From the NCBI GenBank assembly GCA_016206785.1, contig JACQQV010000008.1, forward strand, positions 4,402 to 68,401: DNA of 64,000 nucleotides, given 5' to 3'. The notes beneath the pieces are model-generated. The model was not told the DNA's origin, did not search any database, and saw nothing but the letters and a program-made list of their open reading frames with translations. Source of the DNA: Candidatus Omnitrophota bacterium (GTDB lineage Bacteria > Omnitrophota > Gorgyraeia > JACQQV01). Each line of letters begins with the position of its first letter. Within the stretch, counting starts at the first letter, position 1. Made by a program: the position numbers and the translations under genes. Of the stretch, positions 30,584 through 40,287 are shown piece after piece.

Positions 30584-32263
30584 GTGACGCAGACAAAAAG
30601 GTCGATTGGGAAGACGCTTGTGGAAGCGGGCCGACTTTCCAGTGAGGAACTCAGGCAGGCCGAAGAAGAGGCCCGCCAAAAGAACCTTTCCCTGGATGAG
30701 GTCCTGATCCGCAATAACTTCATTTCTCAGGAAGAAAGAGGGGTGCTGTTGGCGGATCAGATGGGGGTCCTCTATGTCGATCTTGAAAATTATCTGGTCG
30801 ACCCCGCCGCCATTGCCCTTGTTTCTGAAGCTTTTGCTAAAAAACATTCCTTGGTTCCCCTTTTCCGGATCGGAAACACCTTGACCGTGGCCATGGCCAA
30901 TCCTCAGGATGTTCTTGTCATCGATGATCTTCGTCAGAAGACCAAATGTGAAATCGAACCCTGCTATACCACCGTCGGTGCCATTCAAAATGCGATCGAT
31001 CAATATTACGGAGTGAGCGGTTCTCTCGAAGAATTGATCAAAGACATCGATCGAGAGAAACTGGCGCAGGAAGCCCAACGGAAGGGGAGGACGCCGGAAC
31101 AGATCGCGGAGGAGGCCCCTATCATTAAACTGGTCAATATGATTGTGATGCAGGCGATCCGCGATCGGGCAAGCGACATCCATGTGGAACCTGCAGAAAC
31201 CGTTCTCCGCATCCGGTATCGTATTGACGGTATCTTGCACGAAATCGTAACCACTCCCCTCGAATTGCAGCCACCGATCGTCTCCCGCATCAAGATCCTT
31301 TCAAAAATGGATATCGCAGAAAAGAGGATTCCACAGGACGGCCGTTTTCAAATGAAGAGCGAGGGGAAAGAAATAGACCTTCGCGTCTCTTCCTTTCCGA
31401 CCGTCTACGGAGAAAATGTGGTGATGCGTCTTCTCGATCGAAGCAATCTCCTCTTAAGCCTCGAGGATATCGGTTTTCCAACGGCAACGCTCAAAAATTA
31501 TAATCAACTGATCCATCGGCCCTACGGCATTATCTTGGTGACCGGACCGACGGGGAGTGGCAAAACCACGACCCTCTATGCCACCCTCCAAGCCATCAAT
31601 ACCGTCGCAAAGAATATCGTTACGATCGAGGACCCTGTCGAATATCATTTGGAACTGGTCCGCCAATGTCAAGTCAACCCGAAAGTGGGTCTGACCTTTG
31701 CCAATGGACTTCGTTCGATCGTCCGCCAAGACCCGGACATCGTGATGGTGGGCGAGATCCGTGATATGGAAACCGCCGAGATCGCGATTCATGCGGCCCT
31801 CACCGGCCAACTCGTTTTCTCAACCCTTCACACCAATGACGCCCCCTCTGCGGTGACACGCCTCGTCGATATGGGGATAGAACCCTTTTTGCTCTCCTCC
31901 TCGGTCGTTGGCGTTTTAGCACAGCGTCTGGTCCGTATCATCTGTCTGAAATGCAAAGCCTCTTATACACCTCCTGCCGAACTCTTGAAAGAGTTAAACC
32001 TGCCGCTCAACACCCTCTTCTACCGGGGAAAGGGATGCAGCCATTGCAAGAATACCGGGTACCGGGGACGGCTCGGTATCTTTCAACTGATGCTCATGAC
32101 CGCGGAAGTGAGGGAGCTTATCTTAAAGAATAGTTCTGCAGACCAAATCCGGAAGGAGGCCCATAGAGCGGGAATGATCACCCTCCGTGACGACGGTCTC
32201 GACAAAGCCCGCCAAGGCATCACGACCGTCGAAGAGGTCCTCCGAGTGACTCAGGAAGTATAA
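30584..32263 (+). CDS. pilB: Type IV pilus / T2SS assembly ATPase (PilB/GspE family).
   Basis: N-terminal GSPII_E_N domain. Walker A GPTGSGKTTT. Asp box. His box. Tetracysteine Zn motif (CLKC...CSHC). Confidence 0.9.
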   Translation: MTQTKRSIGKTLVEAGRLSSEELRQAEEEARQKNLSLDEVLIRNNFISQEERGVLLADQMGVLYVDLENYLVDPAAIALVSEAFAKKHSLVPLFRIGNTLTVAMANPQDVLVIDDLRQKTKCEIEPCYTTVGAIQNAIDQYYGVSGSLEELIKDIDREKLAQEAQRKGRTPEQIAEEAPIIKLVNMIVMQAIRDRASDIHVEPAETVLRIRYRIDGILHEIVTTPLELQPPIVSRIKILSKMDIAEKRIPQDGRFQMKSEGKEIDLRVSSFPTVYGENVVMRLLDRSNLLLSLEDIGFPTATLKNYNQLIHRPYGIILVTGPTGSGKTTTLYATLQAINTVAKNIVTIEDPVEYHLELVRQCQVNPKVGLTFANGLRSIVRQDPDIVMVGEIRDMETAEIAIHAALTGQLVFSTLHTNDAPSAVTRLVDMGIEPFLLSSSVVGVLAQRLVRIICLKCKASYTPPAELLKELNLPLNTLFYRGKGCSHCKNTGYRGRLGIFQLMLMTAEVRELILKNSSADQIRKEAHRAGMITLRDDGLDKARQGITTVEEVLRVTQEV

Positions 32264-32266
32264 ACC

Positions 32267-33502
32267 ATGCCGGTATACCGATACAAGGTGCGTGACGCCT
32301 CGGGACAGGCCATCACCGGCACTGTGGCGATGGAGTCTCCGGAGGCGACCGCACGGCATTTAGAGGAAAAGGGATATATCCCGATTTCCATCGAGGAGGA
32401 AGGGGCTGTCAGCACGATGCTGAAACCCTCTTCTTTCAGAACCCGCTTCGCCTCCGTCAAAGACAAAGATCTCAATTTCTTTACCCGTCAGATGGTGACA
32501 CTCACAAAAGCAGGGATTCCCCTCGTGGCGGGCCTTCAAACCCTCAGGGACCAAACCGCGAGTGGAACCCTGAAAGGGGTCATCGCCGCTGTGGTGAGCG
32601 ATCTTGAGAGAGGAGAAAGTTTCTCAAGCGCCCTTTCCCACCATCCCCGCGTCTTTTCGGAGCTTTATGTGGCGATGGTGAGGGCGGGGGAAGCGACGGG
32701 ACAGTTGGATGAAATCTTATTCCGTCTGGTAGAACTCGGGGAGTATGACACCTATGTAAAATCGAAGATCAAGACCGCCACCTTCTATCCTAAGCTCATC
32801 ATGAGTATCATGTTTCTCGCGTTTCTCTTCATCACCACTTTTGTTCTCCCCCGTTTCGCCTCCTTTTTTCAACAGGCGGGGGTGGAACTCTTATGGACGA
32901 CGAAATTTCTCCTCTGGTTAAACTTTGCGTTACGGAATTACTGGTATGCGGCGATCGCCATCGTCGGAATGTTTGTCTACGGATTCCGTTATTTTTTAAA
33001 GACGAAGGTTGGGAGGAGACTGTGGGACACGGTGAATCTGAAGATCCCCGTTTTCGGAACGCTCTTTCACCAATTTGCGATGTCTCGTTTCTCACGTGTC
33101 CTCTCCATTACGAGTAGGAGCGGCGTTCCCATTCTTGAATCCCTTGAAATCGTTTCCCGTTCTGTAGGAAATGTCACGATCTCCTCCGAGGTCTTGAGAC
33201 TTCGGGAATCGGTTCGTCGAGGGGAAGGTCTTGCGAAGCCCATGTCGGAAGGTAAGCTTTTTCCTCCCATTGTGATCCGGATGGTCTCTGTCGGCGAGGA
33301 GACGGGGAAGTTGGATGAACTCCTTTTGCGGGTTTCGGAATACTACGATTTTGAAGTGGACAATGCCATTCAAAAGCTGACCATCTTGATCGAGCCGATT
33401 CTCCTCGTTGTTCTCGGCGGTATGGTTCTCTTTCTCATCCTTTCCATTTTTGTGCCGCTCCTCCGGTTCTACACCAAGATTGCCGGAGGAGGGGGAAGAT
33501 AA
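32267..33502 (+). CDS. pilC: Type IV pilus / T2SS inner-membrane platform protein (PilC/GspF family).
   Basis: Two GspF repeats. 3 TM. ~410 aa. Immediately downstream of pilB. Confidence 0.9.
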   Translation: MPVYRYKVRDASGQAITGTVAMESPEATARHLEEKGYIPISIEEEGAVSTMLKPSSFRTRFASVKDKDLNFFTRQMVTLTKAGIPLVAGLQTLRDQTASGTLKGVIAAVVSDLERGESFSSALSHHPRVFSELYVAMVRAGEATGQLDEILFRLVELGEYDTYVKSKIKTATFYPKLIMSIMFLAFLFITTFVLPRFASFFQQAGVELLWTTKFLLWLNFALRNYWYAAIAIVGMFVYGFRYFLKTKVGRRLWDTVNLKIPVFGTLFHQFAMSRFSRVLSITSRSGVPILESLEIVSRSVGNVTISSEVLRLRESVRRGEGLAKPMSEGKLFPPIVIRMVSVGEETGKLDELLLRVSEYYDFEVDNAIQKLTILIEPILLVVLGGMVLFLILSIFVPLLRFYTKIAGGGGR

Positions 33503-33514
33503 AGGGGCTGACCC

Positions 33515-33543
33515 TTGACAAAAAACGGATCGTCAGGTATACT
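33515..33543 (+). promoter_or_regulatory. Consensus sigma70 promoter. TTGACA-N17-TATACT.
   Basis: TTGACA at 33515-33520, 17-nt spacer, TATACT at 33538-33543. It begins 12 nt after the pilC stop. Confidence 0.65.
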
Positions 33544-33550
33544 CTTCAGA

Positions 33551-33651
33551 AGACAAGATCCGAAAAAGGCACACCCGGGGAAACCCGGGGCCGCAAAGCT
33601 ATGGGTCTAAAGCCCCTGGGCATGACCGCCAAGCGTACCGAGGGTATGATC
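33551..33651 (+). ncRNA. Candidate c-di-GMP-I (GEMM-like) riboswitch aptamer / structured leader.
   Basis: GGCACA-CCCGGG-GAAA-CCCGGG-G-CCGCAAAGC at 33568-33599 mirrors the GEMM GGCAAA-P2-GNRA-P2-GACGCAAAGC core. A UCUAAAG...UAUGAUC tetraloop-receptor-like pair follows. See findings. Confidence 0.4.
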
Positions 33652-33686
33652 GCCAAGCTGCCGAAGGCAGGCTTGGCATTTTTTTT
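33652..33686 (+). terminator. Intrinsic terminator (expression platform of the leader).
   Basis: GCCAAGCUGCC-GAAG-GCAGGCUUGGC hairpin followed by an 8-U tract. Confidence 0.8.
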
Positions 33687-33746
33687 CGCCAGAAATTAAA
33701 GCATCTTAGAAAGTTTTGCATTTGGACATTTGCACAAAAATTTGGC

Positions 33747-33803: not shown

Positions 33804-34319
33804 ATGGAAAGAACAAAGAAACGGACTCATCGTGGGTTCACGTTGATTGAACTTGTCATCGTGATCACCATTCTAGCGATCTTGGCTGCTGTGGCTATTC
33901 CAGCCTTCCAGAACCTTACCACTCAGGCGAGGAACGCAGGAACCAATGGGGCGCTTGGGGGACTTCGGAGCGCACTCGCCGTCTATAGAGCGAACGCGAT
34001 TTCAGCGGGTTGCGATCCTGCTGGAACAACAGGATTAGCCGCAACCGACTGTTGGCCGAGACTTGTAGATATAACGTCGAATAGCGTGATGGAGAATAAC
34101 ATTGTTCCTGCGAACCCTTGGGCTGTTACAGCAGGGATGACCGCTGCGGAGTCCAGTGGTATCGAGGCTGCCACTTCGGCACAGGCGGCCGCCCGTACCG
34201 TCGATGGCACTGGTGCTGGATGGCGATACTATATTGCAGACAATGCGACTCCCAATGGGATCATCTACGCCAATAGCACTTCAAACGGTGGAGGGACAGC
34301 CACAGAGAATACTTTCTAA
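33804..34319 (+). CDS. pilA: Type IV major pilin (PilA-like).
   Basis: Class III signal MERTKKRTHRG|FTLIELVIVITILAILAAVAIPAF with Glu+5. Ala/Thr/Gly/Ser-rich C-terminal region. Two Cys. Confidence 0.85.
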   Translation: MERTKKRTHRGFTLIELVIVITILAILAAVAIPAFQNLTTQARNAGTNGALGGLRSALAVYRANAISAGCDPAGTTGLAATDCWPRLVDITSNSVMENNIVPANPWAVTAGMTAAESSGIEAATSAQAAARTVDGTGAGWRYYIADNATPNGIIYANSTSNGGGTATENTF

Positions 34320-36182: not shown

Positions 36183-37868
36183 ATGGGGGTGAAACCGACA
36201 AAAAAAAGGGTAGGACGGAAGACTGAACTTTTTTGGCTCAATACCCTCTATGAAATCGTTCGAGATGTCAATTCAACCTTAGGCCTCAAAAGCACCTTAA
36301 AGACGATTGTTGAAAAGGCAAAGACACTCCTTAAAGTCGAACGGGCTTCTCTCATGCTTCTCGATAAGAAAGGGAAGACGCTCACCATCCATTTTGCGGA
36401 GGGCCTCTCCCCCTTGATTCTCCGCAATACGCGCATCAGGATCGGCGAAGGCGTTTCCGGATGGGTGGCTCAAAAGGGGAAGCCGCTTCTCATCCAAGAC
36501 ATTAGCAAAGACCGGCGCTTCAAGAAAAAAGAAGGGGCCCGCTACTCCACCGATTCCCTCCTTTCGGTTCCCCTCAAGGTCAAAGGAAAAACAATCGGCG
36601 TTTTAAATGTCAACAATAAAAGAGGAAGGAAGATTTTTACCCACGACGACCTGGAACTTTTAACCGCCCTTGCCGATGAAGCGGCGATCGCCATCCACAA
36701 TGCAACGCTTTATGATGAACTGGTCCAGGTGAATGAGCGTCTCAAGGAACTCGATAAACTGAAATCCGATTTTGTGGCGAAGGTCTCCCATGAACTTCGA
36801 ACCCCTCTTGCCACAACCCGTTACTTTATTACCGCGGTGCGGGGGGAGACCCAGAACACAGGCGCAACCCGCCAGAAAGAATACCTGGGCCTCATCGAAG
36901 ACAACCTTGACCGACTCACGCGGCTCATTGATAATCTCCTCGATTTTTCCAAGATGGAGGTGGGACGGTTTGAACTGAAGAAGGAGCGCGTCGATCTTTT
37001 ATCGATTGCGCGGTCGGCGATCGAAACCCTCCGAAGAAAAGGAGAGGAAAAGGAGATCGCCTTGGTGCTCTTAAGTCCAGGAAAAGTTCCTCCCACCTAT
37101 TTGGATCAGGACCGGATGACCCAAGTAGTCACGAATCTCGTCGACAATGCGATCAAGTATACCCCTTCAAAGGGGTCTGTTTCGGTTGAGATCAAAAGGG
37201 GGAACGGGAATATTCTCCTCACTGTTCGAGATACCGGGGTCGGGATCCGTTCGTCCGATCAGGAAAGGCTTTTCGAAAAGTTCCGGCAGCTCGGACCGAG
37301 CATCCCCCACGAAAAAGGGGTAGGGTTGGGGCTCGCCATTGTGAAAGAGATTGTAATACTTCACAAAGGAAAGATCTGGGTAAAATCGCAGGAAGGGAAG
37401 GGGAGCACATTCACCATCTCCCTTCCGGTTTTAAGCGACGAAGAATTTTTTATGGAGAGGTTGTCGCAGGAAATTCAGAAGGCGCGTGAAAACGGGGATT
37501 TCCTCTCCCTCGTGATTTTAGGAATTGCAAATTTCGAGCATCTTAAAGAAAATATCGGAGAAGAAGGGATGGAATCCCTTTTGGATGAGATCGCCCGCCT
37601 GGTGAAGGAAACGGTCCGCCGACCGAGCGACATCGTCGCCAGTTACAAGCAGGGGAAGGTGATCGCCATTTTAGCGGGTGCCGATAAGGCGGGGGCACTC
37701 GCGCTTGCAGAACGTGTGAAAAAGACGATCCTTTCTCAGCCTTTTCCGATCAAGGGTTCCCCGGTTTCACCGGAACTTCAGTTCGGGATCGGGACCTTTC
37801 CGGAGGATGGAGGAAGCCAAGAAGAATTGGTGAAGCAGGCAGAAAAAAGTTTATACGGTCATTCCTAA
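36183..37868 (+). CDS. GAF-sensor histidine kinase with a C-terminal degenerate GGDEF domain (RxxD I-site retained).
   Basis: GAF (LLKVERASLMLLD...GEGVSGWV). HisKA H-box (SHELRTPL). HATPase_c (NLVDNAIKYT...GVGLGL). C-terminal GGDEF fold with A-site SYKQGK in place of GG(D/E)EF, preceded by RPSD (RxxD). Confidence 0.7.
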   Translation: MGVKPTKKRVGRKTELFWLNTLYEIVRDVNSTLGLKSTLKTIVEKAKTLLKVERASLMLLDKKGKTLTIHFAEGLSPLILRNTRIRIGEGVSGWVAQKGKPLLIQDISKDRRFKKKEGARYSTDSLLSVPLKVKGKTIGVLNVNNKRGRKIFTHDDLELLTALADEAAIAIHNATLYDELVQVNERLKELDKLKSDFVAKVSHELRTPLATTRYFITAVRGETQNTGATRQKEYLGLIEDNLDRLTRLIDNLLDFSKMEVGRFELKKERVDLLSIARSAIETLRRKGEEKEIALVLLSPGKVPPTYLDQDRMTQVVTNLVDNAIKYTPSKGSVSVEIKRGNGNILLTVRDTGVGIRSSDQERLFEKFRQLGPSIPHEKGVGLGLAIVKEIVILHKGKIWVKSQEGKGSTFTISLPVLSDEEFFMERLSQEIQKARENGDFLSLVILGIANFEHLKENIGEEGMESLLDEIARLVKETVRRPSDIVASYKQGKVIAILAGADKAGALALAERVKKTILSQPFPIKGSPVSPELQFGIGTFPEDGGSQEELVKQAEKSLYGHS

Positions 37869-38261
37869 ATGGGACAGAAAAGAATCCTTGTCGTCGAAGA
37901 TGAAGCAGATTTTTCAAAAGCCCTGAGGGCAGTGCTTGAGGGCCAGGGTTTCGAGGTCCATACAGCCGCCACAGGCAAGGAAGGGCTTTTCCTTGCCAAA
38001 AGCATTACGCCAGACCTCATCATTCTCGATGTGATGCTTCCTGAAATTGACGGCTACAAGGTCTGCCGTCTCCTTAAGTTCGACGAACGCTACAACAAAA
38101 TTCCGATCATCATGCTGACCGCCCGTGCCCAAGAGGAAGACAAGAACCTGGGGCAACAAACCGGTGCAGATGCCTACCTGGTCAAAGGTCAAAAGCCTGA
38201 AGTGCTGATCGAGCAGATCAAAGCGATTCTTGCAAAAGGTCCTTCTCTCCCGCCCGCTTAA
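37869..38261 (+). CDS. Stand-alone response-regulator receiver (CheY-like).
   Basis: ILVVEDEADF...ILDVMLPEIDG...IIMLTA...DAYLVK receiver motifs. 130 aa. No output domain. Confidence 0.8.
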   Translation: MGQKRILVVEDEADFSKALRAVLEGQGFEVHTAATGKEGLFLAKSITPDLIILDVMLPEIDGYKVCRLLKFDERYNKIPIIMLTARAQEEDKNLGQQTGADAYLVKGQKPEVLIEQIKAILAKGPSLPPA

Positions 38262-38384: not shown

Positions 38385-38609
38385 ATGAAACAGGTCGCTT
38401 TTGCAAGGTCGAATTCCCAACTCATGACGGTCGAGGAGGTTGCCCGTTATCTTGGAATTCATGCCATCACCGTTTATCGGATGCTCAAGAAAACAGACAT
38501 CCCTGCCACCAAACTGTTAGGGAAGTGGCGTTTTAAGAAGGATGTCCTGGACCGCTGGCTCGAATCCCGGATGGAGGAAAGATCTCTTCCCCTCAAACGG
38601 AGAAGGTGA
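38385..38609 (+). CDS. Excisionase-family helix-turn-helix DNA-binding protein (HTH_17-like).
   Basis: MTVEEVARYLGIHAITVYRMLKKTDIPATKLLGKWRFKKDVLDRWLE matches the excisionase-family HTH domain. 74 aa. The stop is 4 nt before the pilB2 start. Confidence 0.65.
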   Translation: MKQVAFARSNSQLMTVEEVARYLGIHAITVYRMLKKTDIPATKLLGKWRFKKDVLDRWLESRMEERSLPLKRRR

Positions 38610-38613
38610 AGCG

Positions 38614-40287
38614 ATGCCGAGGCAGAAGAATCTATCTTTAGAAGAGGTGATCCTGGCCAAGGGACTGTTGGATCCTGAACGGCTGGAAAGGGCCAAAAAA
38701 GAATCAGAAAACTCGAAGGAATCTCTTCAGAAAACTTTGATCCGGCTGGGATATCTTACAGAAGAATTACTCATTCCTCTTTTGGAGGAACGGTCCGGCC
38801 TTCCCTACGTGGATCTCGATACCTACACGATGGACCCCGAACTCATTAAGCTCATTCCGGAGGCGGTTGCGCGCCGGTATCAACTGATCCCTCTTTTTAA
38901 GATCGGAAAGATCCTCACGGTGGCGATGGCAGATCCCTCCAACTATTTTGCCCTCGATGAAATACGCCTTAAGGCCCATTGCGATGTGGAGGCGGTCGTG
39001 AGTACCGAAGAGAAGATCCGACAGGCGATCGACCAACACTATGGTACTGGTGGTTCCATGGAAGCATTGGTGAAGTCGATTACCCAGCGGACGATGGATC
39101 TGGGGGATGAAAAATTGGTAGAAGAAGCCCCCATTATCCAACTCGTCAACCTCCTCATTTCCCAAGCGGTCCGGGAAAGGGCGAGCGATATCCATATTGA
39201 GCCGGAGACAGACACATTGCGCATCCGCCTTCGGATTGATGGCGTTCTTCATGAAATTCCTGCTCCCCCGAAGGAATTGGAACGGGCGGTGATCTCCCGG
39301 ATCAAGGTCCTTTCAAAGATGGACATCGCAGAAAGAAGAATTCCTCAGGATGGACGTTTCAGGGTGCAGGTCGATCACAAAGAGATTGATCTGCGCGTTT
39401 CAACGATTCCAAGCCATCATGGAGAGAATGTGGTCATGAGGCTTCTGGATACAGCGACCGTCTTGATCGGCCTCGAGGAACTCGGTCTTCCGCATGATGC
39501 CTTTGAACCCTTTCATCATCTGATCCACCGGCCGCATGGCATCATTCTTGTGACAGGTCCCACAGGAAGCGGGAAGACAACGACACTTTATGCGTGTCTC
39601 AATAAAATCAGCACCCTTGAAAAAAATATCATCACGATTGAAGATCCGATCGAATATGAAATGGAAGTCATCCGCCAAATGCAGGTCAATCCCAAGATCG
39701 GCGTTACCTTTGCAAACGGCCTCCGCTCCATCTTAAGGCAAGACCCAGACATCATCATGGTCGGCGAGATCCGTGATGTAGAGACTGCAGAGATGGCGAT
39801 TCACGCGGCCCTCACAGGACATCTTGTTTTCTCAACCCTTCATACCAACGATGCCCCGGGGGCGCTTACCCGTCTTATGGACATGGGTGTTGAGCCATTC
39901 CTTATCGCCTCTTCTGTGATCGGGATCGTGGCCCAGCGGCTCGTCCGACTCATCTGCCCGCAATGCAAAAAATCGTATGTCCCTTCCCAAGAACTTTTGA
40001 AGACATTAAGGCTTCCTCTCGGGAAGGGCCCCATTCCCCCTCTGTATCGGGGAGAAGGATGCCGTTTCTGCAAGGAGACAGGATACAAAGGAAGGACCGC
40101 GATTTTTGAACTGATGGTCATGGAGGAGGAAATCCGGGAACTGGTGATTCAGAGAGCCTCTTCGCCAAAAATGAAGGATGCGGCCTGTCGGAAGGGCATG
40201 CAGGTTTTGAGGGAGGATGGCCTGGCCAAGGCGATGGCAGGAATTACTTCGATTGAAGAAGTGCTTCGTGTGACGCAGGACGAGTAA
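38614..40287 (+). CDS. gspE: Second PilB/GspE-family secretion ATPase.
   Basis: Walker A GPTGSGKTTT. Asp and His boxes. CPQC...CRFC Zn motif. N-terminal GSPII_E_N-like domain. The track start at 38542 overlaps the HTH gene, so the start is ATG 38614. Confidence 0.9.
   Translation: MPRQKNLSLEEVILAKGLLDPERLERAKKESENSKESLQKTLIRLGYLTEELLIPLLEERSGLPYVDLDTYTMDPELIKLIPEAVARRYQLIPLFKIGKILTVAMADPSNYFALDEIRLKAHCDVEAVVSTEEKIRQAIDQHYGTGGSMEALVKSITQRTMDLGDEKLVEEAPIIQLVNLLISQAVRERASDIHIEPETDTLRIRLRIDGVLHEIPAPPKELERAVISRIKVLSKMDIAERRIPQDGRFRVQVDHKEIDLRVSTIPSHHGENVVMRLLDTATVLIGLEELGLPHDAFEPFHHLIHRPHGIILVTGPTGSGKTTTLYACLNKISTLEKNIITIEDPIEYEMEVIRQMQVNPKIGVTFANGLRSILRQDPDIIMVGEIRDVETAEMAIHAALTGHLVFSTLHTNDAPGALTRLMDMGVEPFLIASSVIGIVAQRLVRLICPQCKKSYVPSQELLKTLRLPLGKGPIPPLYRGEGCRFCKETGYKGRTAIFELMVMEEEIRELVIQRASSPKMKDAACRKGMQVLREDGLAKAMAGITSIEEVLRVTQDE

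Follow-up and report, generated by a model that had tools for sequence, protein, structure and literature searches.

A predicted class I c-di-GMP riboswitch with a duplicated 3' half upstream of a type IV pilin gene in Omnitrophica

What lies between pilC and pilA in the 64-kb stretch of Omnitrophica DNA analyzed here (64,000 nucleotides [nt]; "the window"), and could it control the supply of pilin? Both genes are on the + strand: pilC (T2SSF) occupies 32267-33502, with its stop codon at 33500-02 (open reading frame [ORF] list and Pfam), and pilA occupies 33804-34319 and encodes a type IV (pre)pilin of 171 aa (Pfam N_methyl, E = 1.7e-9, and ORF list). An earlier note, made by eye on the sequence, had proposed that the leader between them consists of a promoter, an aptamer of the GEMM-I type, which responds to cyclic di-GMP (c-di-GMP), and an intrinsic terminator. 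The locus thus raises three questions: whether the aptamer is there, how it could be coupled to the terminator, and in which direction the ligand would act.

The whole window was scanned on both strands against Rfam 15 at gathering thresholds. Only two matches were reported, a tRNA and RF03167 (c-di-GMP-I-GGC), the latter aligning over its full model length to 33559-33666 on the + strand with 68.5 bits against a gathering score of 59 (E = 4.3e-14); this is a covariance match of the kind the earlier note had hoped for over 33560-33650. One further match from the same clan was also above its gathering score and was masked by clan competition. Since clan competition masks the lower-scoring model, RF01051 (c-di-GMP-I) was seen only by searching the shortened stretch 33564-33641 alone, where it scored 53.6 bits against a gathering score of 35. 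Judged by these models, the pilC-pilA leader carries a class I c-di-GMP (GEMM-I, tetraloop/receptor type) riboswitch aptamer, and c-di-GMP is its expected ligand. The class assignment alone is routine, as any Rfam-based annotation would detect the riboswitch. Unconstrained minimum-energy folding of the leader did not recover the aptamer, and such folds were not used as evidence for it.

Comparison with related loci supports the same pairing. An NCBI entry named Candidatus Omnitrophica matches the window's PilC at 100% identity, which marks the source as a metagenome-assembled genome of this group. PilC orthologues of 66-89% identity were gathered from genome, metagenome and assembly collections; PilC scans of genome and metagenome contigs gave four loci, and the rest came from a protein search and exact-protein look-ups. 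The same aptamer was found in eight further distinct leaders, referred to below by locus number (L004, L007, L008, L009, which equals L010, L011, L012, L014 and L017). RF01051 was called in six of these orthologous leaders at 38.8-65.6 bits, and RF03167 in L008. The RF01051 scores were 58.4-65.6 bits in L004, L007, L009/10, L012 and L017, while a large insertion brought L011 down to 38.8 bits and L014 below the Rfam threshold. In an alignment of the nine aptamer cores, from the window and the eight orthologues (alignment A1), 93.4% of the cells were standard pairs, compared with 24-41% when partners were slid by 1-3 columns, and the covariation score was 0.252 versus 0.109 in shuffles (reached by 0/500), figures that overstate the independence of the evidence because there are only nine distinct leaders and these are mutually related. 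The compensatory result in P2 is unambiguous despite this kinship: all six P2 pairs change on both sides (CCCGGG/CCCGGG, CCCGCC/GGCGG, CUACGG/CCGUAG, CCACAG/CUGUGG and CCCGUC/GGCGGG). One P3 pair also changes from G-C to A-U in L017, again compensated. The proposal of a GEMM-I aptamer and terminator ahead of a pilin gene is thus borne out by the Rfam scores and by the compensatory changes in orthologues.

The first two-thirds of the aptamer, all on the + strand, were assigned from the RF03167 alignment and, from P2 onward, also from that of RF01051. The 5' strand of P1, UCCG, lies at 33559-33562 and is followed by an A-rich J1/2 at 33563-67; the partner of C33561 and G33562 is the CG in one or the other of two 3' halves, copy a and copy b, described below. 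CG/CG pairs are present in 9/9 leaders, and AUCCGAAAA of the P1 5' strand region is conserved in 8/9. The stretch that the earlier note had read as GGCACA-CCCGGG-GAAA-CCCGGG-GCC-GCAAAGC at 33568-33599 stands in the sequence exactly so. It contains the P2 hairpin (33569-33594), with closing pairs G33569-C33594 and C33570-G33593, a stem of CCCGGG (33574-79) with CCCGGG (33584-89) and a GAAA loop (33580-83), and the J2/3 adenines (33595-33596), which are invariant in 9/9 leaders; the J2/3 consensus is GACGCGAAgC in RF03167 and GACGCAAAgC in RF01051, and the window has GCCGCAAAGC. The 5' strand of P3, here called Y (AGCUAUGGGUC, 33597-607; 33597-33612 with the receptor strand), is common to both folds considered below and is invariant save for a G-to-A change in L017 that is compensated in copy a. 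The 5' strand of the tetraloop receptor, UCUAAAG, is at 33606-12 rather than at 33609-15, where it had been placed by eye. Constrained folding and duplex energies delimit a distal P3 segment d, GCCCCUGGGC, at 33612-33621.

In the Vc2 aptamer, G20, A47 and C92 contact c-di-GMP (PMC4744006). By model alignment the equivalent positions in the window are G33568, aligned to the conserved G of both RF01051 and RF03167 and present in 9/9 leaders, A33595, the counterpart of the intercalating A47, and C33638 in copy a or C33661 in copy b; the C92-equivalent is C in 8/9 copies of a and in 5/5 full copies of b. The interhelical Watson-Crick C-G pair between P2 and P3, universal in GEMM-I (PMC4744006), would be formed by C33592 with G33628 of copy a or G33652 of copy b, and it is C-G in 9/9 leaders, which shows its presence, not covariation. 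Type I c-di-GMP-I aptamers combine a GNRA tetraloop on P2 with a receptor in P3 (PMC11218506). Here, GAAA at 33580-83 is combined with UCUAAAG and either CAUGA (33621-25) or UAUGA (33645-49), aligned to the receptor columns of RF01051.

What sets this leader apart is that it carries its 3' half in two copies. GGGCAUGACCGCCAAGC (33618-34) and GGGUAUGAUCGCCAAGC (33642-58) form a direct repeat with 88% identity. Copy a (33621-33640, +; 53.6 bits with RF01051 and 58.9 bits with RF03167 in its register) comprises the receptor strand CAUGA, the P3 3' strand GAC-CG-CCAAGC (33624-34), an extra G33635, U33636 and A33637, C33638 at the C92 position, and C33639-G33640 as the 3' strand of P1. Copy b (33645-33666, +; the 68.5-bit RF03167 match) comprises the receptor strand UAUGA, the P3 3' strand GAU-CG-CCAAGC-U (33648-59), G33660, C33661 at the C92 position, and, just before AAG, C33662-G33663 as the 3' strand of P1. 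The junction and P1 strand thus read G-UAC-CGA in copy a and U-GC-CGAAG in copy b. RF03167 aligns at full length to either copy, the b register treating 33609-45 as an insertion in the P3 loop. The P3 stem and tetraloop receptor drawn by eye in the earlier note had mixed these two alternatives: UACCGA (33636-41) and UAUGAUC (33645-51) are where it put them, the former belonging to copy a and the UAUGAUC/GAUC strand to copy b.

The two copies have fared differently among the orthologues. The copy-a motif GCGUACCGA, including its 1-nt insertion, is found in 7/9 leaders and the extra G in 9/9. A complete copy b (AUGAYYGCCARGYU-RC-CGRA) is present also in L004, L008, L011 and L014, making five lineages with the window, and these full-b leaders are spread from the deepest to the shallowest branches of the PilC tree. 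In L009/10 copy b is reduced to its receptor and P3-strand part and has neither junction C nor P1 strand, and the simple-type leaders L007, L012 and L017 have only a mimic of the P3 strand (e.g., AAC-AG-CCAGGU), as the 5' arm of the terminator. By this distribution the duplication is old. An accidental recent duplication was considered and ruled out: across lineages with 68-100% PilC identity the two copies are both maintained, and each retains the junction typical of it.

The shared 5' strand allows two folds, which are mutually exclusive. In fold I, copy a completes the aptamer, copy b is free, and segment d forms a small apical hairpin. In fold II it is copy b that completes the aptamer; copy a loops out, and d pairs with the complementary d' (CCGAGGG, 33638-33644, +), forming the 5' side of a distal helix that is longer. 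The pairing of Y with b comprised 60/60 standard pairs (alignment A2). Because the register of d:d' varies between sequences, this helix was evaluated by duplex energies and shuffles in place of column-wise pair counts. The duplex was worth -11.4 kcal/mol in the window and -8.6 to -15.5 kcal/mol across 6/6 copy-b leaders, where the d/d' pairs are CCCCUGG/CCGAGGG (window), CCCUGGGG/CCCCAAGG (L004), CCCCGAG/CUCGAGG (L008), CCCUGGGG/CCCCAGAGG (L011), CCCCGGG/CCUGGGG (L014) and CUGGG/CCCAG (L009). Each d:d' beat shuffled d', with 0.002-0.08 of the shuffles at least as good, and the d of L008, which is divergent, forms a good duplex with the d' of that leader and not with those of L004, L009 or L011, which is covariation. 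In the window d' overlaps the end of copy a, and a spacer between the copies is nearly absent there.

Copy b is also the part of the aptamer that overlaps the terminator. The strong intrinsic terminator that had been noted after the aptamer is present (33652-33686, +): folding gives a 5' arm at 33652-62, a GAA loop at 33663-65, a 3' arm at 33666-77 with G33670 bulged, so that the hairpin ends at 33677, and then A and U8 (33679-86). The 5' arm is the same stretch as the P3 3' strand of copy b and its junction, including C33661 and the first nucleotide of P1. Copy b alone, and not copy a, overlaps the terminator, so that the aptamer element formed with copy b and the terminator pairing are mutually exclusive, as an attenuating riboswitch requires. 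The same overlap is found in L004, L008, L011 and L014, and a hairpin with U7-8 occurs at the matching place in all related leaders.

Constrained folding of six leaders was used to compare the two folds before and after the terminator is complete. For transcripts ending ahead of the terminator 3' arm, the energy of fold II minus fold I was -2.2 (window), -1.0, +0.7, -2.2, +1.7 and -7.3 kcal/mol; at full length, fold I with the terminator was favored by 3-12 kcal/mol. As modeled, this energy profile is that of a switch decided during transcription, and equilibrium energetics from constrained folding do not discriminate ON from OFF. RNAalifold on the copy-b leaders gave only fold I plus terminator, and in fold I of the window the junction of copy a was predicted to be paired (GUACC:GGUAU). 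No convincing antiterminator was found for the simple-type leaders L007 and L012; among leaders of this type, the truncated minimum-energy fold pairs the terminator 5' arm with the distal P3 in L017 only.

We favor, with a probability of about 60%, an ON switch in which c-di-GMP stabilizes fold II and so prevents termination. The strong promoter directly after pilC would transcribe the leader, and the riboswitch would control the terminator upstream of the pilin gene. With no ligand, fold I and the terminator would win, and transcripts from the upstream promoter would stop at 33686. With c-di-GMP, the ligand would lock fold II via copy b, which has the consensus junction, and the locked fold would bury the terminator 5' arm and hide the junction nucleotides that would otherwise nucleate the terminator. 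RNA polymerase would then read through into pilA, adding to the output of pilA's own promoter, and high c-di-GMP would result in more pilin.

We infer both the direction of regulation and which copy binds the ligand. The copies differ systematically at the pocket, which favors the ON switch: copy a has the extra G in every leader, and in 5/5 full copies of b the junction has the consensus GCU-RC-CGRA with nothing inserted. The unpaired pocket residues of b are, moreover, conserved even though they fall in differing parts of the terminator across lineages, which favors it too. In 4/5 full-b leaders the apical terminator stem pairs with the junction or P1 strand of b. In L008 the terminator overlaps only the junction/P1 part of b (UGCCGAAG:CUUCGGCA), so only a ligand-closed pocket could block the terminator there. 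The ON direction is further favored by the predicted pairing of copy a's junction in fold I of the window, by the PilB ATPases with MshEN domains encoded at this locus and by the pilin precedent of Clostridioides difficile, in which c-di-GMP turns on pilA1 via a riboswitch and terminator (PMC6366702).

Several observations weigh against the ON switch, in addition to the kinship of the nine leaders. Copy a, too, scores well as an aptamer (53.6-66 bits) and keeps the junction C and the CG of P1, and it may also bind the ligand, which would favor termination. Four lineages (L009/10, L007, L012 and L017) are without the pocket part of copy b, so that the platform there fits only an OFF switch or none. 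The nearest relatives, L003 (89% PilC identity) and L005 (80%), have kept the promoter and terminator and are without the aptamer; its loss from both indicates that the module is dispensable. At full length, fold II in the window is ~12 kcal/mol costlier than fold I by nearest-neighbor energies, which take no account of tertiary contacts or ligand, so that any ON effect must be kinetic, and fold II has little time in which to capture the ligand. Finally, the start of transcription, the binding of the ligand and termination itself are all predictions from the sequence.

The same parts can be assembled with the opposite sign, as an OFF switch in which copy a senses the ligand and copy b, a mimic of a, acts as an antiterminator strand. 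From the d:d' toehold onward, b would displace a from the shared P3 5' strand and sequester the terminator 5' arm; c-di-GMP bound to the a-fold would block this exchange, the terminator would form, and read-through into pilA would fall. It suits this arrangement that copy a is transcribed first and fits the canonical model, tetraloop receptor included, and that the terminator 5' arm resembles an aptamer strand, as an antiterminator built on the P3 5' strand requires. Ahead of the terminator 3' arm, fold II is equal to or slightly stabler than fold I in 4/6 leaders, and in the yxjA purine riboswitch a strand exchange gated by ligand has been documented (PMC9756952). The b of L009/10, with no junction C or P1 strand, and the leaders with a P3-strand mimic only (L007, L012 and L017) fit this logic only. 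An antiterminator, however, has no need of the pocket residues U-R-C-CG-R-A that five lineages conserve in b, and these would let the ligand stabilize the wrong state. The L008 terminator and the Y:b helix have no overlap, so unliganded fold II could not stop termination there, and in 4/5 full-b leaders the apical terminator stem begins in the unpaired junction of b, which would be a ready toehold for the 3' arm. Equally stable folds would also give at most ~2-fold regulation, and the near lack of a spacer between a and b in the window would leave almost no time for ligand capture. On balance we consider an OFF switch unlikely, though a serious contender.

The conserved promoter of pilA itself, the existence of leader-less relatives, and the retention of promoter and terminator without the aptamer in L001, L003 and L005 could instead point to a unit that is mainly a small RNA (~137 nt) in its own right, or a relic in decay, with an essentially constitutive terminator; pilA would then be expressed only from its own promoter, and c-di-GMP, if bound, would alter the stability or trans-activity of a short RNA. 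The full-length minimum-energy fold always contains the terminator, and the simple-type leaders show no convincing antiterminator, as such a unit would have it. The exact overlap of copy b with the terminator, the covariation of d:d' and the balanced fold energies are nevertheless hallmarks of a cis-acting switch, and the unit is always directly upstream of, and co-oriented with, a gene, which is a pilin gene in 7/9 aptamer-bearing leaders. No target complementarity came up, although no systematic search for targets was made. We regard this explanation as improbable, and an independent small-RNA role is not needed to account for the leader. The ligand could also be other than that of a canonical aptamer, since the window and L008 both have RF03167 as their top match, scoring above its gathering threshold; the leader might then be a c-di-GMP-I-GGC variant or a riboswitch for 3',3'-cGAMP (GEMM-Ib), a kind that occurs in Geobacter. 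The printed consensus lines read GACGCGAA for RF03167 and GACGCAAA for RF01051 at the conserved pocket position, and from these lines only we take "GGC" to denote the G20/G47/C92 positions. In place of the conserved G of RF03167 (GACGCGAA), the canonical A (GCAAAGC) stands in the window and in every orthologue; this is A33595, a mismatch at model position 37 and A in 9/9 leaders. Most orthologues and the copy-a register of the window are best matched by RF01051, and RF03167 probably scores higher on the window as it models P1 and tolerates a long P3 insertion. GEMM-I RNAs selective for cGAMP typically have A at the G20 position, and this position is G in 9/9 leaders (G33568 in the window). PMC9481103 mentions a key pocket nucleotide change in the 3',3'-cGAMP riboswitches (GEMM-Ib). 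Because the diagnostic nucleotides are canonical, we file the element as a canonical c-di-GMP-I aptamer and hold a specificity variant to be very improbable. The alternative entertained in the earlier note, that the segment 33601-33699 encodes a 32-aa peptide (MGLKPLGMTAKRTEGMIAKLPKAGLAFFFARN), is hardly credible. An ATG-initiated ORF is present, with its ATG within the aptamer, yet it has no Shine-Dalgarno sequence, the homologous ATG gives 14-63 aa in orthologues, and the frames diverge after ~6 codons because of 1-nt indels such as UAAAG versus UAAG; conservation tracks base pairing, not codons.

Within the ON switch, the presence of two conserved 3' halves admits a more specific and tentative interpretation, a two-register riboswitch in which one aptamer 5' half is completed by either 3' half and copy a is a surrogate or decoy that hands over to b. 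Copy a, made first and with its extra G, would fold the aptamer early and hold the shared P3 strand, leaving the terminator as the default, and would possibly pre-capture the slowly binding c-di-GMP. Copy b would take over by strand exchange from the distal P3 end, only with ligand. If true, the hand-over would address the scant ligand-binding time of an ON switch whose sensor overlaps its terminator. A decoy or hand-over platform made of an aptamer half was not found described for any riboswitch class in the literature searched.

Compared with Vc2 and the RF01051 family, the window's aptamer has the same short P1, G before the P2-closing GC pairs, 6-bp P2 with GAAA, CGCAAAGC junction, P3 with a UCUAAAG/AUGA receptor, interhelical C-G and junction C before the P1 3' strand, and the same nucleotides at the G20, A47 and C92 positions. 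It differs in that the 3' half occurs twice, copy a having one nucleotide more (G) between P3 and the junction, in its Omnitrophica host, and in the large insertions that some orthologues carry in J1/2 and beside the A47 position. To RF03167 it is very similar in the primary sequence of P1, J1/2, P3 and the 3' junction (UGCCGAAG), and differs from it in having the canonical A for G right after the P2-closing pairs. In Cdi2_4 of C. difficile pilA1, a c-di-GMP leader with a terminator likewise lies directly upstream of a major type IV pilin gene, and ligand binding promotes read-through (PMC6366702), the same logic as favored here; its aptamer is of class II, with an unrelated fold and a Firmicute host, and no duplicated aptamer half has been described for it. 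In the yxjA purine riboswitch of Bacillus subtilis, too, a downstream strand displaces a formed aptamer helix and the ligand decides (PMC9756952). Unlike in yxjA, the invading strand in the window repeats almost completely the 3' half of the aptamer itself (receptor strand, junction C and P1 strand included), the alternative fold is itself aptamer-like, and invasion would start from the distal P3 end. A partial second copy of an aptamer sequence is also known as the "ghost aptamer," which supplies tertiary contacts alongside the real aptamer. The two copies in the window differ from this in being exclusive partners of one shared 5' half. For the singlet glycine riboswitch, PMC5066625 and PMC6239177 describe such a partial, degenerate second copy as retained on structural or energetic grounds.

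The conserved duplicated 3' half with its two balanced folds is an unusual expression platform, and no description of one was found in the literature searched. If the proposed mechanism is true, it would be a compact natural two-state RNA switch, balanced between its folds, with relevance to cotranscriptional folding and riboswitch design. The riboswitch places class I c-di-GMP sensing before a type IV pilin gene of Omnitrophica, an uncultured phylum, which suggests an RNA-level link between c-di-GMP and the supply of pilin. What was found in the literature on Omnitrophota together with riboswitches concerns the ComFB family of c-di-NMP receptor proteins.

Transcription of the leader would begin at a near-consensus, sigma-70-type promoter (promoter P1; 33515-33543, +) that starts 12 nt 3' of the pilC stop, as the earlier note had seen. 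It has TTGACA at -35 (33515-20), a 17-nt spacer and TATACT at -10 (33538-43), matching 11/12 consensus positions. Its -35, spacing and -10 recur in 12 related loci, and where other genes have come in behind pilC it still lies next to the leader. We expect it to be active, with a start near 33550 and hence a leader of ~137 nt up to the terminator. In L012 the inserted gene encodes a GIY-YIG domain (L012:1364-1600), and in L003 two ORFs intervene (L003:2540-3140); in both, the promoter adjoins the leader and not pilC.

The pilA ATG (33804) sits 118 nt past the U-tract of the leader terminator and is preceded by a Shine-Dalgarno sequence, GGGAGG (33790-95, +). Between them lies a second promoter-like sequence (promoter P2; 33747-33775, +), TTGATT-17-TAAAAT with an upstream TG, which is kept in every related locus, also in the leader-less L013 and L015/16, and is likely to be active. 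Since pilA has its own conserved promoter, the switch would gate only the transcripts from the upstream promoter or the read-through from pilBC. A by-eye candidate for a sigma-54 promoter upstream of pilA was dropped, its GG-to-GC spacing being wrong. Between the terminator and the proximal promoter is a conserved block (33690-33745; AAATTAAAG..CTTAGAAAGTTT..TTTGGA..TTTGCACAAAAA) that recurs at the matching place in L001, L003-L005, L007-L012 and L014, includes a palindrome, TTCCATTTGGAA, in L005, and may be a binding site for a pilA transcription factor.

The neighborhood contains further c-di-GMP components. Upstream of pilC is pilB (T2SSE and MshEN; 30584-32263, +; ORF list and Pfam). Downstream, Pfam identifies a GAF-HisKA-HATPase-GGDEF hybrid protein (36183-37868), a stand-alone response regulator (37869-38261) and a second MshEN-T2SSE ATPase (38542-40287), so that components for c-di-GMP synthesis and its protein-level sensing are encoded just downstream of the riboswitch. 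The GGDEF protein and MshEN, on both GspE/PilB ATPases of the locus, were recovered with Pfam, in agreement with the GGDEF kinase and GspE N-domains that had been listed by eye together with a PilZ protein. MshEN is listed among c-di-GMP targets in PMC12448109, and with such ATPases in the same locus a protein-level link to c-di-GMP is also possible.

Among close relatives the leader family displays gain, remodeling and loss, in full, partial, simple and deleted forms, and the turnover of the riboswitch module by gain, remodeling and loss is quick. L003 and L005 keep a P1 5' remnant and are without P2 and the P3 5' strand; their leaders look like deletion derivatives of a riboswitch leader. 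L001 has only the promoter and an unrelated hairpin with U8. In these three loci (L001:4256-4320, L003:3140-3232 and L005:3740-3828) a near-consensus promoter is followed, 10-60 nt on, by a strong hairpin and U7-8, with no aptamer.

Other leaders have been enlarged within the aptamer. In L004 (4310-4365), L007 (3827-3877), L011 (1819-1888) and L014 (3799-3834), two hairpins (36-70 nt) lie within J1/2, between CCGAAAA and the G20 position, and the insertion at this place is 0-1 nt in the window, L008, L009, L012 and L017. L011 (1914-1975) and L014 (3860-3925) have, in addition, an extra stem of ~60-70 nt (CCGCCUGCC...GGCGGGCAGG) between the P2-closing GC pairs and AAAGC; standing beside the A47 position, it would turn the three-way into a four-way junction. 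Copy a of L017 (3890-3904) has U for C at the C92-equivalent (GCGUAUCGA), and this leader is unique in its compensated P2 and P3 changes. In L007 (4062-6236) and L011 (2127-4258) the gene after the leader is not a pilin and encodes a ~900-aa protein without a Pfam match.

Two minor observations were made in the scans. A search of viral contigs with the conserved core gave no orthologue of the leader and two chance matches within coding sequence. A 41.5-kb viral contig met by chance in this search (L019; IMG/VR UViG_2916912718_000002) carries two canonical c-di-GMP-I aptamers ~575 nt apart, at 2306-2392 and 2881-2968 (87.9 and 88.9 bits), which are unrelated to the Omnitrophica leaders. The tRNA gene reported in the window is at 1794-1868 (66.6 bits).

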